DNA of 46,709 nucleotides. Source: Lachnospiraceae bacterium. Its GTDB lineage: Bacteria > Bacillota > Clostridia > Lachnospirales > Lachnospiraceae. Position 1 is the first letter of the stretch. The number at the start of each line of letters is the position of its first letter. Shown here in pieces: positions 22,705-39,730 of this stretch. The notes beneath the pieces were generated by a model. The model was not told the origin of the DNA and made no database searches. It worked only from the letters and a program-made list of their open reading frames with translations. Made by a program: the position numbers and the translations under genes. The DNA is taken from NCBI GenBank assembly GCA_900770325.1, contig CAAGKE010000112.1, positions 1 through 46,709 on the forward strand. The letters are read 5' to 3'.

Positions 22705-22752
22705 ATTCACGTGTACCGCGGTGTACCATAGGAAGGTGCGGTACACGTGAAT
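22705..22752 (+). promoter_or_regulatory. 15-bp perfect inverted repeat enclosing the terL SD-like sequence and GTG start
   Basis: ATTCACGTGTACCGC (22705-19) is the exact reverse complement of GCGGTACACGTGAAT (22738-52). The 18-nt loop is GGTGTACCATAGGAAGGT. The terL GTG (22747-49) lies in the 3' arm. Confidence 0.7.
22711..22728 (+). promoter_or_regulatory. late-region motif copy 1 (GTGTACCGCGGTGTACCA)
   Basis: 18 nt upstream of the terL start. Confidence 0.6.
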
Positions 22753-24366
22753 ATTACAAGAAATGAGAGAAATGCGCGGCTGCTTTTAAAGAGCGATTTG
22801 TCAGTATATGAAAATCTGAATTTGCTTTTTGAAACATGCCGAAATATTTTGGAAGAAGATAAGGAACGGGCATTGAAATTGGGCCGTCTGGTTGAAGCCA
22901 AGGCAAATGAAATGGCCAGAAAAGACGCCCGATTCTATGATTTGTACATAAGAGCGCTACTTTTCCTGTCACGGCATTACTTCCATGAGTATTTACTGTA
23001 CGTGGAACATAAACGCCCGCCGGAAAAGCAGTTTTATCTTCCGAGATGCCATGTGCTCAGGACTGTGGTTGAAGATCTGCAAGATCTGGAGGATGGAGTT
23101 ATTGATTTCCTTGGCGTATCCATGCCGCCCCGAGTTGGAAAATCAACAACCTGTATCTTCTTTATGACCTGGCAGATGGGACTTCATCCGGATATGGCAA
23201 ACCTTATGTCTGGCCATTCTGATCCGTTGACAAAAGGGTTCTACAAGGAAACCTTGAATATCATCCGAAGTGAAGAATATTGCTGGAAAGATGTATTCAC
23301 GGATGTATCGTTTGAAAGCACATCGGCAGAGGATGAAGCAATCAATCTCAATTCCCCATCTCGTTTCCCGACCTTGACCTGCAGATCCATCGAAGGCACA
23401 ACCACTGGTGCAGTAGAGGCGGCGAATCTGCTGTATACGGATGACCTTATCAAAGACCGTAAGGAATCCTTAAGCCCCCAGCGTCTAGAAACCAAATATC
23501 AGGATTATCTAAATAAGATTCTCGATCGTAAGCTTGATAATGCCAAAGAGCTTATGGTAGGAACCAGATGGAATGTGGCAGATCCACTGGGAAAAATACA
23601 GTCACAACACAAAGATAACCCGAGATATAGGTTTCGCGTCATACCAGCACTGAATGAGGATGACGAGAGTAATTTCGTATATAAGTTCGGGAAGGGATTT
23701 TCAACAAAGTATTATAAAAGCCTTCGGGAAACGCTGGACAATAATGAATGGATGGCAAAATATCAGGGCCGGCCATTCAAACGAGAGGGATTGTTATTCC
23801 CGGCAGAGGAGCTAAAAACATATAATGGAGTTCTGCCTGTAGGAGAACCTGATGTAATCATGGCTGCGATAGACGTGGCGTGGGGAGGCGGAGACAGTTT
23901 AGCGATGCCTGTATTATATGTTTATGGAGGCCGGGGATATGTTCAAGATGTGGTTTTTTCAAAGGGAGATAAGACTATTACCATGCCGTTGGTTGAGGGA
24001 AAAATTCTTCAACACAGAATACAGCTTATACGAGTGGAAGGAAACAATGGAGGGCATATGTATAGTGACGTGATCGACCAGAACATAAAGAATGCAGGAT
24101 ATTTCTGCAATATTACCAATCGCGTAACTGGAAGTGACAAGAGTAAAATGACACGCATGGTGCAGTATGCGCCTGAGATCAAACAGCTATATTTTATCAA
24201 TGATAAAAATGCAAGCAAGGAATACAGGGAGTTTATGGAAGAAGTAACATCATTATCGGTCGAAGGAAAAAATGAACATGATGATGCGCCGGATTCTTTA
24301 GCGATGCTAATTGATTTCTGGAAAGGCGATGCCGGATGGTGTGAACCCGTAGAAAGACCATGGTAA
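22747..24366 (+). CDS. terL: terminase large subunit
   Basis: Walker A PPRVGKSTT, Walker B LLYTDDLIKD, and a C-terminal nuclease-type HDDAPDSLAM. 539 aa. Confidence 0.9.
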   Translation: MNITRNERNARLLLKSDLSVYENLNLLFETCRNILEEDKERALKLGRLVEAKANEMARKDARFYDLYIRALLFLSRHYFHEYLLYVEHKRPPEKQFYLPRCHVLRTVVEDLQDLEDGVIDFLGVSMPPRVGKSTTCIFFMTWQMGLHPDMANLMSGHSDPLTKGFYKETLNIIRSEEYCWKDVFTDVSFESTSAEDEAINLNSPSRFPTLTCRSIEGTTTGAVEAANLLYTDDLIKDRKESLSPQRLETKYQDYLNKILDRKLDNAKELMVGTRWNVADPLGKIQSQHKDNPRYRFRVIPALNEDDESNFVYKFGKGFSTKYYKSLRETLDNNEWMAKYQGRPFKREGLLFPAEELKTYNGVLPVGEPDVIMAAIDVAWGGGDSLAMPVLYVYGGRGYVQDVVFSKGDKTITMPLVEGKILQHRIQLIRVEGNNGGHMYSDVIDQNIKNAGYFCNITNRVTGSDKSKMTRMVQYAPEIKQLYFINDKNASKEYREFMEEVTSLSVEGKNEHDDAPDSLAMLIDFWKGDAGWCEPVERPW

Positions 24367-24381
24367 CCTAGAGGTGGATTG

Positions 24382-24634
24382 ATGTCAAACATAAAAGCTA
24401 ATGATGATGAGTTTGTAGGAAAGACTTATAATTACTTAACAGTAATAGGATTTCGAGAATACAAGGAAATCAATAATAGTGAATATTGGTGGGAAGAAGA
24501 AACCGGTGGGGATCTGGGCGGATGAAATGGGTTTAAAAAGGAGCACAGTTTATGGCCGTATAAGAAAAGGAATGTCACCATATGAAGCGCTGGCTATTCA
24601 TTCACCTAGTGAGCCTATAGAACGTCCGTGGTAA
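24382..24634 (+). pseudogene. possible frameshifted remnant of a small HTH protein
   Basis: ORF A (24382..24525) encodes MSNIKANDDEFVGKTYNYLTVIGF.... ORF B (24479..24634) lies in another frame and encodes ...IWADEMGLKRSTVYGRIRKGMSPYEALAI. The two halves resemble the N- and C-termini of one protein type, and the central part is missing. Confidence 0.35.
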
Positions 24635-24650
24635 AAAGGGAGGTAAGGAT

Positions 24651-24995
24651 TTGCCAAGTAAACGATATGTCAACCTATCACAATATGGAATATCGGACGA
24701 GCGCCGGAGGGAGCTGGTGGCATTTGCTTTGCAATATAAGGAGTGGATTGACGGTCTAAGCCGGCAGGAGAACCCGAAGCTGCGCAAAAAAGTAAATTTG
24801 GTTGAATATGCGGCAAATCAGAGTTCAGAAGAAATTCGCGGGGATTATGGTCTGGCAGAGTACATAATCAAGAACGTGACGGAAGACCGTCCGTACTGGT
24901 ATCTCAAACAAGTTATGAGGATGCCGTACCGAGATAAGGAATTTTACGCTGCCAGGAAGCGATTTTTTGTGATTTTAAATCAGGAAAAAGATTAA
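24651..24995 (+). CDS. hypothetical protein (possibly sigma-r4/ArpU-like regulator)
   Basis: TTG start after GGGAGGTAAGG. The C-terminal PYWYLKQVMRMPYRDKEFYAARKRFFVILN is reminiscent of small phage late regulators, but the match is weak. Confidence 0.6.
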   Translation: MPSKRYVNLSQYGISDERRRELVAFALQYKEWIDGLSRQENPKLRKKVNLVEYAANQSSEEIRGDYGLAEYIIKNVTEDRPYWYLKQVMRMPYRDKEFYAARKRFFVILNQEKD

Positions 24996-25076
24996 TTGCC
25001 AGAATACGGGACATACGTTTGTGTTATTGTGTATGTGGATGGTCATGTAATCACCATTTGCCTTTTCCCCCTACAC

Positions 25077-25104
25077 GGCGGCCTACAATGGGCCGCCATT
25101 TATT
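25077..25104 (+). terminator. intrinsic terminator-like hairpin
   Basis: GGCGGCC-tacaatg-GGCCGCC followed by ATTTATT. Confidence 0.55.
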
Positions 25105-25137
25105 GAAATGTACCAGATTGATTGTTGAGGTGAGAAC

Positions 25138-38218: not shown

Positions 38219-38767
38219 ATGGCATTAATTAAATGCCCTGAGTGCGGGAAGGAAATAAGCGATAAGGCCGAAAAATGCCCTAATTGCGGTTATCCAATCT
38301 CTAACCAATCAAAGGCGAAAGATGAATACGATAATTTATATTCAGCGGCAAGAGCTTTTTCTAAACCAAAAAATTCTAACAAGTCAGAAGAGAAGAAAGA
38401 GATATCGTCAACAGGACGCATGGTTGTTGGAATTATATTCATAGTTTTATCTGTTTTTACGCTTTTTCAATCCTGCGCAGCAGGAATTTCAAATGTATTA
38501 GGTGACGGAACCGGATTTGATGGAACACTTGGAGCTTTCTCGGCAATACTTATGTTAATTATTGGAATTGTTAGTATCGTTACGAGAAAAACTTCAAATT
38601 CTATTGTTCCGTTAATAATGGGTATCATTCTTGTGGTTTATGGGTATTCCATAGCGTATGTATACAATGGAACATTTAAAGACTTGAAAATATATGGCAT
38701 GTTGATGATGATCTGTTCTTTAGTTTACTTTTTTGGTTTTAAGAAGCTTAGGAAGAATAGGGGATAA
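38219..38767 (+). CDS. zinc-ribbon membrane protein (moron)
   Basis: MALIKCPECGKEISDKAEKCPNCGYPIS is followed by about four hydrophobic segments. Confidence 0.75.
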   Translation: MALIKCPECGKEISDKAEKCPNCGYPISNQSKAKDEYDNLYSAARAFSKPKNSNKSEEKKEISSTGRMVVGIIFIVLSVFTLFQSCAAGISNVLGDGTGFDGTLGAFSAILMLIIGIVSIVTRKTSNSIVPLIMGIILVVYGYSIAYVYNGTFKDLKIYGMLMMICSLVYFFGFKKLRKNRG

Positions 38768-38834
38768 ATTGGAGCCTTATCTTTTGTCAGCAATAAAGCC
38801 GCAGCAAGGTTTTTCTTTCACATAGACATAATTA

Positions 38835-38863
38835 TTTACAACCCCCCTCCTGTGTGATATACT
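38835..38863 (+). promoter_or_regulatory. moron promoter 3
   Basis: TTTACA, 17 nt, then TATACT. Confidence 0.6.
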
Positions 38864-38899
38864 TTTTACAATAAATAACATAATGGAGGGGGATTTATA

Positions 38900-39493
38900 A
38901 TGAAACTAAAATTTGCGATTGTAATTGCGGCAACAGTATCACTTTCAATGAGTATACCTGTCTATGCTGAAGAGTGGAAACAAGATTCGGTTGGATGGTG
39001 GTACCAGATGGATGATGGAAGTTATCCTTCAAATCAGTGGAAAGAAATTGCAGGAAAACAGTATTATTTTGGAAGCGATGGATATTTGCTGGTAAGCACC
39101 ACAACACCAGATGGAAAATCAGTAGGAGCGGATGGAGCATTGATTGAAGATAGCAAATCAGAAGCTCCTGTTCTGAATGTAAATTCTTACCAGTCGATTC
39201 TTGATTATTATACATGGAAGATCGAAAATGCTGTTCCTGGATTAATTGCTGAATATAATGCAGAGGCTGCCAACAATACAGGAGGGCTACAAGGTTTAGC
39301 TGAAATAAGCAACAATAAGGTTGTGAAATTGGCTGAAATAGAAAGTGATGGCGTTACGGAGATGGCAAAACTATATTATAGATCAGGGTCAGGTAAATAT
39401 AGCGAGTATGAAGAATGGGCAATGAAACTGTATGATGTATATTCTGACGGAGCAATGAAAATATATGATGCATATATGGATTCTGCCATGTAG
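38900..39493 (+). CDS. secreted protein with choline-binding-type cell-wall repeats (moron)
   Basis: Signal peptide MKLKFAIVIAATVSLSMSIPVYA, then GWWYQMDDGSYPSNQWKEIAGKQYYFGSDGYLL. Confidence 0.8.
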   Translation: MKLKFAIVIAATVSLSMSIPVYAEEWKQDSVGWWYQMDDGSYPSNQWKEIAGKQYYFGSDGYLLVSTTTPDGKSVGADGALIEDSKSEAPVLNVNSYQSILDYYTWKIENAVPGLIAEYNAEAANNTGGLQGLAEISNNKVVKLAEIESDGVTEMAKLYYRSGSGKYSEYEEWAMKLYDVYSDGAMKIYDAYMDSAM

Positions 39494-39510
39494 AAAATAG
39501 TGGTATAAGT

Positions 39511-39540
39511 AAAAGCCGCCAGTCGGGCGGCTTTTACTTA
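39511..39540 (+). terminator. intrinsic terminator after the moron block
   Basis: AAAAGCCGCC-agtcg-GGCGGCTTTT. Confidence 0.8.
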
Positions 39541-39712
39541 TTATATAGTGAATTATTGATTTTACATAAGTGCAATAATGCATATAGTTTTATTTATTGA
39601 AATTATCCCCAAATTAGTGTATATTATATCCATAAGGTCGCTCATTCGGGGCTTGTAATTGCCCGGATTGGGCGGCTTTTTCTGCCTGTTTTAACAGGCA
39701 AATCGACTTTTA

Positions 39713-39730
39713 GTGTACCTCAGAGTACCA
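39713..39730 (+). promoter_or_regulatory. late-region motif copy 5 (GTGTACCTCAGAGTACCA)
   Basis: 61 nt upstream of the first tail-tip gene. Confidence 0.55.

Follow-up and report, generated by a model that had tools for sequence, protein, structure and literature searches.

A 46,709-nucleotide stretch of DNA from a Lachnospiraceae bacterium (contig CAAGKE010000112.1, called the window here) carries the late genes of a phage, and a short bipartite motif stands in front of several of its virion gene blocks. This raises the question of what reads the motif, and whether it is read as DNA or as RNA. The original prediction took it for the element that a regulator dedicated to the late genes recognises, which could be an activator, a Q-like antiterminator or a translational activator that binds RNA. 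The RNA-binding option is supported by a paired stem, by compensating changes and by co-occurrence with Com, while the Q-like antiterminator and DNA-activator options are unsupported. The motif is most likely an RNA element, a small hairpin to which a zinc-finger protein of the phage, a relative of Mu Com, binds.

Motif copies and the genes they precede

The motif, GTGTACC-N3/4-WGTACCA, occurs five times in the window. All copies were recovered where they had been described, on the + strand and between genes, and a pattern search of the - strand found none. We observed 4 + 1 matches compared with 0.00 expected from 100 dinucleotide-preserving shuffles. The core TGTACC alone occurs 31 times (11.5 +/- 3.3 expected).

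Site 1 (22711-22728, GTGTACCGCGGTGTACCA) ends 18 nt before the GUG codon (22747) of terL, the large terminase gene (22747..24366, + strand), whose product has a terminase RNaseH-like domain and homologues in relatives. Site 2 (26722-26738, GTGTACCGAGAGTACCA) lies at the stop codon of a com-like gene and 123 nt before the ATG (26862) of a + strand block (26862..28886) that includes the scaffold gene (26862-27443), a gene for a 108-aa head protein (27458-27784) and the major capsid gene (27804-28886; Phage_cap_E in a relative). Site 3 (30962-30979, GTGTACCGCAGTGTACCA) is followed by AUUUUUU and then, 27 nt from its end, by the ATG (31007) of the major tail protein gene (31007..31429, + strand; phrog_158). 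Site 4 (32251-32268) is the same 18-mer, as had been noted. The TAG that closes the tail chaperone frameshift ORF overlaps it, and it ends 21 nt before the GUG (32290) of the tape measure protein gene (32290..37092, + strand; phrog_1535, E = 6e-89). Site 5 (39713-39730, GTGTACCTCAGAGTACCA) ends about 37 nt before the distal tail and tail-tip genes (132 aa and 743 aa; 39768..42397, + strand). In a relative, L049, the homologous genes (129 aa and 740 aa) come directly after the tape measure gene.

All these distances fall within the range of 18-125 nt given originally. A TAG codon meets the start of the motif at three sites, overlapping its first base at sites 2 and 4 and directly preceding it at site 5. 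With all five sites on the sense strand and three of them only 18-27 nt before a start codon, there is no room for a promoter at those three. A promoter function is thus unlikely, and the earlier view that this is not a sigma-70 promoter holds.

A covariance model built on sites with a 3-nt spacer retrieves exactly these five sites from the window (site 1, 21.8 bits; site 2, 15.3; sites 3 and 4, 22.5 each; site 5, the top match, 25.8). The sixth-ranked match reaches 11.4 bits (E > 2). A lone half-site had also been listed at 25109; it is present, but is not recovered by the model and does not appear to be the same kind of site.

The small hairpin and a Com-like protein

The central four bases of the two half-sites are complementary (GUAC/GUAC) and can form a hairpin of 4-6 bp with a loop reading C-N(2-3)-G-A/U. 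With a 3-nt spacer this loop comprises six bases; at site 2 it has five, and it shrinks to four where G.U pairs lengthen the stem. The sites can be written as GU-GUAC-C-GCG-GU-GUAC-CA (site 1), GU-GUAC-C-GA-GA-GUAC-CA (site 2), GU-GUAC-C-GCA-GU-GUAC-CA (site 3, and hence site 4) and GU-GUAC-C-UCA-GA-GUAC-CA (site 5). The dinucleotide before the stem is GU in most half-sites of the window phage and GC in L040. The flanks (GA...C) form a direct repeat and the central four bases an inverted repeat, and G.U pairs are tolerated in the stem (GUGC/GCGC, GUAU/GUAC). This combination fits an RNA hairpin; a direct repeat or a palindrome in DNA would not account for it.

The format is that of the Com target on the mom mRNA of phage Mu, GA-AUGC-C-UGC-GA-GCAU-CC, which adjoins a hairpin with the mom start codon (PMC6483171). 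The Mu sequence reads GAAUGCC-UGC-GAGCAUCC followed by CCCAC-GGAGAAACAUU-GUGGG, the hairpin containing the start, and the GA before the stem is reported to be crucial (PMC6483171); the GU and GC seen at that position here count against the match. Both targets have a 4-bp hairpin, a C-N3-GA loop and arms flanked by GA...C. The comparison supports reading the half-sites as the pairing halves of one Com-type hairpin, not simply as two tandem binding sites.

Conservation in related phages had been proposed as a check. The hairpin format is indeed kept at equivalent places in relatives, its stem showing substitutions that compensate each other (GUUC/GAAC, GCAC/GUGC, GCGC/GCGC, GUGC/GCGC and AUGC/GCAU). 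For example, GAGUUCC/GAGAACC, at L049 11217 and at L050 2022 and 9537, was spotted by eye before any scan requiring pairing. Other variants are GCAC/GUGC and GCGC/GCGC in L097, GUGC/GCGC and AUGC/GCAU in L055, GCGU/ACGC in L093 and GUGC/GUAC in L040. In a set of 12 sites with 3-nt spacers, every cell of the stem is paired (100%), and three of the four pairs show two-sided changes. The L055, L093 and L097 sites came from a scan that required pairing, so that pairing at these sites is partly by construction. As a control, we asked how often the central 4-mers are complementary among all matches to the bare format: the proportion is 6.6% and 9.2% on the + strand of Com-encoding loci, and 0.8-1.4% on the - strands of these loci and in 75 other relatives. 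Site 1 is kept at the position before terL in L043, L048 and L049, site 2 at the com stop codon in L040, L046, L049, L050, L055 and L093, and site 4 in L040, L041, L043, L048, L050 and L097.

The candidate reader is encoded by the com-like gene (26540..26722, + strand; 60 aa, translation beginning LQSKKKELPLVEVRCANPECNRLLVKARGDVVADCRRCKGRTIF), one of the candidate regulators originally listed and proposed here as RNA-binding. It starts with TTG after an AGGAGG ribosome binding site (RBS) and overlaps the 3' end of the portal gene. The protein is a four-cysteine zinc ribbon whose first zinc knuckle is CxxxxC rather than CxxC. It scores 13 bits against the Pfam Zn_ribbon_Com profile (cut-off 22.9) and shares 41% identity over 34 aa with Mu Com in BLASTP. 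An hhalign comparison of its family (A1) with Mu Com, three Pfam-passing Coms and one sub-threshold Com (L093) gave 97.9% (E = 3e-13). By profile comparison the product is a Com homologue, though it lies under Pfam's own threshold. In L055 and L097 the product of the equivalently placed gene passes Pfam PF10122, as does the L079 Com, which is encoded elsewhere in its contig. A near-identical gene is present in a Bariatricus metagenome-assembled genome. Only five independent lineages of the A1-type protein are present in the databases.

The + strand bipartite GTACC motif is found in all eight loci with an A1-type gene and in none of 78 capsid relatives without one. These 78 include L051-L053, with capsids at 61-66% to that of the window, compared with only 48% for the motif-bearing L049 and L050. 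No other nucleic-acid-binding gene tracked the motif in the region examined across relatives. The candidacy of this protein is therefore backed by both its profile homology and its co-occurrence with the motif.

Competing hairpins and a proposed switch

The small hairpin is weak, at about -2.3 kcal/mol. At all sites but one, as had been predicted, a half-site doubles as part of the 5' arm of a far stronger hairpin (-25 to -30 kcal/mol), with z-scores against shuffles of -6.2 (site 1), -2.7 (site 2), -5.9 (site 4) and -4.4 (site 5). No competing hairpin was found at site 3 in the window phage (z = 0.15).

As folded, the hairpins at sites 2 and 5 are intrinsic terminators, and those at sites 1 and 4 contain the GUG with which terL and the tape measure gene, respectively, begin. 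The predicted translation-inhibition hairpin of terL (22705..22752, + strand; about -28.6 kcal/mol) has the first half-site in its 5' arm, the RBS (GGAAGG) and second half-site in its loop and GUG 22747 in its 3' arm. In L048 the 3' arm before terL (UGUGGUACAC) is complementary to the second half-site instead. The corresponding tape measure hairpin (32256..32293, + strand; -29.9 kcal/mol) has a 5' arm made of the second half-site plus ACC, the RBS (GGAAGG) within its apical stem and loop and GUG 32290 in its 3' arm. Its pairing survives changes in L043 (GGUGGUGCAC) and L040/L041 (GUACCUCC/GGCGGGUAC).

Between the com-like and scaffold genes, a terminator-like hairpin (26729..26784, + strand) is followed by UUUUAUUUUU, and the second half-site of site 2 forms the base of its 5' arm (AGAGUACC / GGCGCUCU). 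This terminator and its U-run are kept after com in every lineage with changed arms (L040, AGUACC/GGUACU; L049, AGUACCGC/GCGGUACU; L050, UACCGAGCG/CGCUCGGUA), and seven lineages preserve the whole arrangement of com stop codon, site, terminator and U-run. At site 5 the second half-site likewise forms the 5' arm base of a strong terminator (39722..39766, + strand; 16-bp stem and U7). Site 3 has no competing structure in the window phage and its role is unaccounted for by the model below; in L049 and L055 the RBS pairs with its first half-site extended by the spacer UCC (UACCUCC/GGAGGUA).

When the small hairpin was forced in folding, the base of the competing hairpin was lost at sites 1, 2, 4 and 5, although at site 1 an outer 8-bp helix including the start codon can still form. 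Forcing costs 9-20 kcal/mol relative to the competing hairpins, so that binding would have to act kinetically on nascent RNA.

We propose, with a probability of about 0.72, that these elements are Com-type hairpin switches gating the late genes. Without Com, the strong hairpins would form, transcription would end at two points, past com and ahead of the tail-tip genes, and neither terL nor the tape measure protein would be translated. Com would build up from the terL-portal-com part of the transcript, then bind and hold the small hairpin on nascent RNA, so that the competing hairpin could not form at its base. Polymerase would then pass the terminators at sites 2 and 5 (antitermination), and the start codons at sites 1 and 4 would be exposed (translational activation). 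Support comes from the identity of format with the known Com target, the compensating changes between half-sites, the homology of the protein to Com and its co-occurrence with the motif, and the conserved com-stop/site/terminator/U-run architecture together with the loss of the competing base when the small hairpin is forced. We infer both the binding of the sites by the 26540-26722 protein and the activating direction of the effect. If the proposal is correct, a regulator that in Mu is known to act on one gene would here govern a whole group of virion genes, at five points in the operon.

Other readings and related systems

The strong hairpins at gene-block borders would equally suit RNA processing or 3'-end protection, and Com binding here is predicted. 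The structures might then be read by a non-Com factor, either a host ribonuclease, for which they would be processing or stabilising sites that divide the long late transcript block by block, or a different phage protein such as the 114-aa product of 24651-24995, which is also common to L040, L049 and L050. We regard this as improbable. The motif format equals an experimentally defined Com target, and the sites occur together with Com genes, including the canonical ones of L055, L093 and L097. The 114-aa protein is absent from L097, where we tested for it, and has a weak homologue in L051, which has no motif. With a host nuclease, loss of the sites would be unexpected in close capsid relatives, which probably have the same hosts.

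A reading of the motif as DNA is quite unlikely; it would make the motif a tandem or dyad site at which a late transcriptional activator binds, with a late promoter for each block. Its half-sites are 9-10 bp apart (one helical turn), in one orientation and ahead of gene blocks, and a candidate activator exists in the 190-aa double HTH protein of ORF 125-697, with HTH and sigma-70 region 4-like matches. However, at the three sites ending 18-27 nt before a start codon the RBS lies in between, no common -10-like element follows the sites, and a promoter right before a strong terminator (site 5) makes little sense. The direct-repeat flanks, inverted centre and G.U pairs also fit an RNA hairpin, and a 125-697 homologue is not needed in L049 or L050, as far as their contigs extend.

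A factor may not be needed at all if a ribosome terminating on the upstream gene melts the terminator or start-codon hairpin, the motif being a by-product of translational coupling. The TAG codons at sites 2, 4 and 5 would agree with this, as would the terminator arm that starts 7 nt past the com-like stop codon at site 2. We find this hard to sustain: the stop overlap is not conserved (at L040 site 4 the stop codon is elsewhere, and sites 1 and 3 have none), and the conserved bipartite sequence, covarying stem and link to Com genes are left unexplained. Least plausible are repressor sites scattered over the late operon that silence its leaky transcription in the lysogen, as 'stoperators' do in mycobacteriophage L5. 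The early operator, with four repeats (TATGTACCCAWTA, 15993-16097), does share TGTACC with the late motif, as originally pointed out, and has the same orientation, but the link is not a meaningful one, since in the related phage L040/L129 the early control region has four ATTACACGAAAATAGAAT repeats while the late sites keep GUACC, so that operator and late motif do not co-vary, the operator units misfit the hairpin model (best 10.1 bits, E = 4.6), and the compensating stem changes argue for RNA.

The proposed Com-type switch can be compared with known antitermination systems. BglG, SacY and LicT stabilise an anti-terminator RNA (RAT). There too the small bound structure uses bases of the terminator 5' arm and so keeps the terminator from forming, as proposed for sites 2 and 5. 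The proteins differ in fold, CAT-PRD there and a zinc ribbon here, the RNA motifs are unrelated, and control by sugar sensing is absent here; the likeness would be an analogy of mechanism only. Processive antitermination by lambda N/nut (a bipartite RNA site with a hairpin), Q and HK022 put also controls late or delayed phage genes by terminator read-through. In those systems polymerase is modified once and ignores many terminators, whereas here each individual terminator or start codon has its own site, a layout pointing to local action that is not processive. A boxA-like element and a promoter-proximal loading site are also absent here.

Mu Com/mom is alike in that both regulators are homologous by profile, four-cysteine zinc ribbons of about 60 aa, with the com gene immediately 5' of a target and a site at its 3' end. 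It differs in several respects. Mu has one site, for a DNA-modification cargo gene, compared with five here (terL, scaffold/capsid, major tail, tape measure and tail tip). The competing hairpins here (-25 to -30 kcal/mol) are far stronger than that of Mu and share bases with the Com hairpin, whereas that of Mu adjoins it. The final bases of the loop are GA in Mu but GU or GC in some lineages here, the host is a Firmicute, and the window protein is under the Pfam threshold. Coupling to intrinsic terminators, seen at two sites here and at the post-com site of every relative, implies antitermination, which Com has not been described to carry out.

Com-like genes also precede single cargo genes, for example llpA bacteriocins and tailocin cargo in Pseudomonas, and the hin1523/nma1821 methyltransferases of Mu-like prophages (PMC6240691, PMC3299994). 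The role of Com in such cases has been called unexplored. These share a Com homologue directly 5' of the presumed target, but have one presumed target each rather than a multi-site set inside a structural operon. We also observed an unannotated Com-like ORF in front of a single cargo gene in Burkholderia phage phiE255.

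Sites ahead of the late gene blocks and their counterparts in related phages

We give slightly less than even odds (about 45%) to the reading that virion production in a group of siphophages from gut Firmicutes is under a post-transcriptional master switch, a zinc ribbon of the Com family. A single protein of 60 aa would recognise a minimal hairpin code, in which loop and flanks are fixed and the 4-bp stem is free, and would serve as local antiterminator and translational activator at at least five late-operon checkpoints; by extension, Coms generally would run multi-site gene sets and not single genes. 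Com itself has been studied for decades as a single-target regulator, the target being mom.

A pattern scan of the window retrieves five bipartite copies of GTGTACC-N3/4-WGTACCA, all on the + strand and exactly where the original prediction placed them: 22711 (GTGTACCGCGGTGTACCA, site 1), 26722 (GTGTACCGAGAGTACCA, site 2), 30962 and 32251 (sites 3 and 4, with one shared sequence, GTGTACCGCAGTGTACCA) and 39713 (GTGTACCTCAGAGTACCA, site 5). A check for chance occurrence and for matches on both strands gave none in shuffles of the window and none on its - strand. TGTACC alone is found 31 times in the window (11.5 expected). Each of the five copies is intergenic or lies across a stop codon, and 18-123 nt separate the end of a copy from the next gene start. 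The starts concerned are those of terL (GUG, 22747), the scaffold gene (26862), the major tail gene (31007), the tape measure gene (GUG, 32290) and a gene for a 132-aa distal tail protein (approximately 39768). The window has a G+C content of 44.8% and carries almost all of its genes on the + strand; it looks like a whole siphophage genome. A megablast of 20 kb of its late region against the phage collection gave no match.

The motif is conserved in related phages in the sense that its position is kept while its exact sequence varies. Two IMG/VR contigs, L040 and L041, share the gene order of the window; their capsid protein is 86% identical to its counterpart there and their DNA about 72% identical. 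GTGTACC is missing from both, but GCGTACC-TAG-AGTACC is retained behind the same small gene, with GCGTACC-CAG-CGTACC ahead of the tape measure gene and a weaker copy ahead of the major tail gene. Hairpins built on the second half-site are also kept in the relatives, with changed 3' arms: at site 4 the arms are GUGUACCACC/GGUGGUAUAC in the window, GGUGGUGCAC in L043 and GUACCUCC/GGCGGGUAC in L040, and at site 2 they are AGAGUACC/GGCGCUCU in the window versus AGUACC/GGUACU in L040. Such G.U pairs and compensating changes are sensible in RNA only.

More distant family members have GAGTACC-N2-6-GAGTACC at matching positions. L049, whose Com-like protein is 51% identical, carries sites before terL (1866), after com (5855, with GAGUAUC as first half) and before the major tail gene (9942). 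L050 (44% identical) carries them after com (3770), before the major tail gene (8195) and before the tape measure gene (9597), and L046 has the motif after com. A variant, GAGTTCC-N2/3-GAGAACC, precedes the tape measure gene of L049 (11217) and the portal gene of L050 (2022), and is present again at 9537 in L050. Here a UA-to-UU change in the first half is offset by one of UA to AA in the second; the central four bases therefore pair, GUAC/GUAC becoming GUUC/GAAC. Phages with a canonical Com extend the series: GAGCGCC-AUA-GAGCGCC before terL and GAGCACC-CA-GAGUGCC before the tape measure gene in L097; GAGUGCC-ACAU-GAGCGCC at the com stop and GAAUGCC-UCC-GAGCAUC before the major tail gene in L055; and GAGCGUC-AU-GAACGCC at the com stop in L093. 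In these natural variants the stems change with compensation and the loop C...GA and flanks are constant. The variation is a ready-made mutational series, and it defines what the protein probably reads.

The original prediction also listed a lone TGTACCA half-site (25109-25115) ahead of the portal gene, preceded by a terminator-like hairpin at 25077-25097. As a site of the same kind it does not hold up: it lacks a second half-site to pair with, and the hairpin model does not accommodate it. It may be the relic of a full portal-gene site, since the L050 portal gene is preceded by the full variant site GAGUUCC-GA-GAGAACC.

The Com-like protein at 26540-26722

The ORF at 26540-26722 (translation LQSKKKELPLVEVRCANPECNRLLVKARGDVVADCRRCKGRTIF...) ends exactly at site 2, its TAG stop overlapping the motif. 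Its product has the N-terminal four-cysteine zinc ribbon of Com proteins (RC..C..LL...C.RC) in the form RCANPEC...CRRC, with a first knuckle of CxxxxC and not CxxC. Alignment of the family shows R14, C15, C20, R22, L24, C35, R37 and C38 to be invariant. The best consistent Pfam match is to Zn_ribbon_Com (PF10122, type member Mu Com), at 13.0 bits (E = 0.073), short of the gathering threshold of 22.9 bits. Four of the six members of family A1, the homologues of this protein, match the same profile, every one below threshold (best E = 0.0019). The threshold is passed by proteins of L055 (25.0 bits), L097 (27.6 bits) and L079 (31.4 bits), as by Mu Com (36.8 bits); those of L055 and L097 are encoded at the position of the window gene, that of L079 elsewhere in its contig. 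BLASTP aligns the window protein to Mu Com with 41% identity over 34 aa (E = 1e-4), and in hhalign A1 matches A3, a profile of Mu Com together with the proteins of L055, L097, L079 and L093, at a probability of 97.9% (E = 3.3e-13, 42 columns). On the Pfam, BLASTP, positional and profile-profile evidence, the protein is a divergent Com homologue, and zinc-dependent specific binding of mRNA and activation of translation are predicted for it.

Family A1 is rare. An exhaustive search of 1.84 billion representatives gave eight matches, four of them small proteins; word-based homologue searches gave one and then five clusters (the five among 5.8 billion proteins), and scans of metagenomes and genomes added a single new lineage-mate, L048. 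The comparative set consists of five A1-type lineages and three canonical-Com lineages. Wherever context is available the gene lies between an SPP1-type portal gene and the scaffold gene, and a near-identical gene is present in a Bariatricus metagenome-assembled genome. A search of solved structures gave no relevant match. Neither did tblastn of the window protein match any cultured phage, and no cultured phage of the collection has an A1-type protein. A canonical Com query matched only Mu-like Burkholderia and Ralstonia phages among those cultured; in Burkholderia phage phiE255, the sole record inspected, an unannotated Com-like ORF occupies the classical position before cargo genes.

Many Com-like zinc ribbons of related phages share a conserved C-terminal peptide, TSSG(M/V/K)xF (L053 8763-8960, L097 8750-8971, L052, L071, L059, L074 and L100). 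In L052, L053 and L097 the last com codons, which encode this peptide, form the 5' arm of the terminator after the gene, and conservation of the peptide may act on the RNA level, the protein level or both.

Pairing of the half-sites and likeness to the Mu Com target

Pair counts are limited to the 12 sites with a 3-nt spacer because MAFFT misaligned differing loop lengths. In these, pairing holds in 100% of cells at all four stem positions, changes on both sides are seen at three of them, and sliding the partner column abolishes pairing; the loop-closing pair is C-G in 11 of the 12. Since some of the sites had been found by a scan that requires pairing, a control was run on every match to the bare format G[AT]NNNNC-N2-6-G[AT]NNNNC. 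The central 4-mers are complementary in 6.6% of + strand matches in the five A1-type lineages (22/334) and in 9.2% of those in three canonical-Com loci (7/76), compared with 1.4% on the - strands of Com-encoding loci and 0.8-1.1% in 75 other capsid relatives (1.36 Mb).

A covariance model built on the sites finds exactly the five sites in the window, with the next match at 11 bits, and gives no match of 16 bits or more in Com-free loci. Across loci it recovers the training sites and adds two weaker L050 sites and one probable false match; it is too short for use as a discovery tool.

Among 86 loci, the GTACC bipartite motif is present on the + strand in 8/8 with an A1-type gene and in 0/78 capsid relatives without one. 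This co-occurrence does not simply follow phylogeny, because L051-L053, whose capsid proteins are closer to that of the window (61-66%, versus 48% for the motif-bearing L049 and L050), have neither an A1-type gene nor the motif. Two other genes track the motif, one for a tail chaperone and one for a 114-aa protein; the latter is absent from L097, where Com and sites are present, and weakly present in the motif-free L051. No other bipartite direct repeats rose above coding-sequence background in a crude search of L052, L053, L059, L071, L074 and L100, which encode more divergent Com-like proteins.

The sites resemble the Mu Com target, a hairpin on the mom mRNA that reads GAAUGCC-UGC-GAGCAUCC, then CCCAC-GGAGAAACAUU-GUGGG in the Mu record. 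Com is reported to recognise a short hairpin with a six-residue loop and an invariant C-G pair closing it, the RNA core being CC(N)2-3GAG or the bipartite GAG(N)2CC, and to protect the loop C and GA (PMC6483171). The same format (short hairpin, loop C-N2-3-GA, C-G closing pair, bipartite GAG(N)2CC) is found in the window and its relatives, with the difference that the Mu loop ends in GA and most half-sites of the window have GU. A wider role of Com homologues has been termed unexplored (PMC6240691), and the literature searched describes them only before single cargo genes (mom, methyltransferases, llpA bacteriocins and tailocin cargo). A Com homologue with five putative structural-operon sites, two of them on terminators, and with a Firmicutes host appears to be new.

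Competing hairpins, alternative readings and neighbouring elements

Folding bears out the strong hairpins described earlier at sites 1, 4 and 5 (z = -6.2, -5.9 and -4.4); that at site 2 is moderate (z = -2.7), and site 3 has none by folding in the window. In the hairpins of sites 1, 2, 4 and 5 one half-site is the base of the 5' arm. U-runs follow sites 2 and 5, and the site 5 hairpin, a 16-bp stem with U7, is also detected by a terminator scan. The hairpins of sites 1 and 4 take up the GUG start in the 3' arm, with GGAAGG, the ribosome-binding site, within the loop or next to it, so that an inhibitory hairpin holding the target start adjoins or overlaps the site. Sites 2 and 5 overlap terminators rather than start-codon hairpins, and site 3 overlaps nothing; in the window it is followed by U6. 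At the major-tail site of L049 and L055, the first half-site plus a UCC spacer pairs with the ribosome-binding site (UACCUCC/GGAGGUA).

These folds compete with the small hairpin formed by central GUAC/GUAC pairing of the two half-sites, which alone is worth a computed -2.3 kcal/mol or so, versus -25 to -30 kcal/mol for the competitors. Forcing it costs 19.6, 9.3, 2.9, 19.5 and 14.6 kcal/mol at sites 1 to 5, respectively. At site 4 it strips the outer helix holding the GUG and leaves the inner stem alone; at site 1 an outer 8-bp helix is still able to form, which counts as a weakness of the model.

Because the competing hairpins far outweigh the small one in stability, the default state would be 'off', with terminators after com and before the tail-tip genes and with the terL and tape measure starts masked. 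Com would be translated from the terL-portal-com portion of the transcript and would capture each emerging small hairpin before the 3' arm of its competitor is transcribed. Protein-stabilised anti-terminators follow the same logic, as does Mu Com at the mom inhibitory hairpin. A plausible purpose would be to provide checkpoints that insulate the virion genes from leaky read-through until the late programme truly starts. If this is true, a Com homologue governs five structural-operon points, some of them terminators, and antitermination is added to the known activity of Com. For uncultured gut phages it would also supply an annotation rule for late control, namely a Com gene that lies between the portal and scaffold genes and is followed by GA-N4-C-N2-6-GA-N4'-C hairpins.

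Other readings fare less well. A DNA activator site does not fit the combination of direct-repeat flanks, inverted core and G.U tolerance. Repressor stoperators of the mycobacteriophage L5 type should carry the sequence of the early operator and vary in step with it; L129, a longer locus of the L040 contig, has four ATTACACGAAAATAGAAT repeats in its early region, unrelated to its late sites, which keep GUACC, and the operator units of the window do not fit the site model. The original prediction had already set aside a sigma-70-type promoter, and rightly. Such a promoter has -35 and -10 hexamers 16-18 bp apart and needs space for a transcribed leader. None of 43 promoter-like matches in 21500-41000, itself a chance-level number (38.6 +/- 7.6), coincides with a site, and start codons 18-27 nt past three of the sites leave no room. 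The Q-like reading is rejected along with those of promoter and stoperator. A described RNA family is dismissed since the only Rfam 15 match in the window at the gathering score is a tRNA gene (21662-21729, +, 51 bits), in the small-gene region between a terS-like gene and terL.

The operator units are four direct repeats, (A)TATGTACCCAWTA, at 15993-16097, where a leftward AcrIC5-like gene and a rightward Arc-like gene (16133-16330) diverge, and are probably early operators. L048 carries the same array and L129 four repeats of different sequence at the equivalent place. The leftward gene (15753-15950, -) is a 65-aa ORF matching Pfam AcrIC5 (anti-CRISPR) above the gathering score (E = 2.3e-9).

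An exact-pattern scan of viral contigs gave mostly marine phage contigs with dense GTGTACCAC(T)GTGTACCA arrays, which were set aside. In many of the IMG/VR contigs L002-L039 (probably marine), GTGTACC(A)-N2-4-GTGTACCA is clustered, with two to four copies in roughly 300 bp and, in some cases, a tandem 10-bp arrangement; L009 8997-9319 and L023 9016-9063 are examples. These clusters look like iterons or a binding array and are kept apart from the comparison set.

The scaffold-gene leader (26785-26861, hairpin at about 26817-26830) contains a second conserved RNA-like element. It is also found just upstream of the scaffold gene in L040, L049, L050, L053, L055 and L097, and throughout the capsid-related group, phages free of A1-type Com included. 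Its 4-bp stem covaries (GCGG/CCGC, GGGG/CCCC, GUCG/CGAC, GUUG/CAAC and GCGG/CCGU) around a conserved AGCGAM loop, and (G)UAAMMAAAGYGUAG and then the ribosome-binding site follow.

About 2.6 kb (37037-39700) separates the tape measure gene from the distal tail genes, which are adjacent in L049. This stretch has promoter-like and terminator-like sites of its own and contains a 358-aa ORF and the genes for a membrane protein with a zinc ribbon (38177-38767) and a choline-binding-repeat protein (38900-39493). It looks like an accessory (moron) block that was inserted, and site 5 lies at its downstream edge. At the other end of the window, 694-8523 is a DNA-modification or anti-restriction module comprising a protein with a dATP/dGTP diphosphohydrolase N-terminal domain (694-1131), a 1160-aa SNF2-related domain/N6_N4 DNA methylase protein split by a Hint (intein-like) domain (1302-4784), a C-5 cytosine methylase (6030-7529) and an ORF whose Radical_SAM match is weak and sub-threshold (7540-8523).
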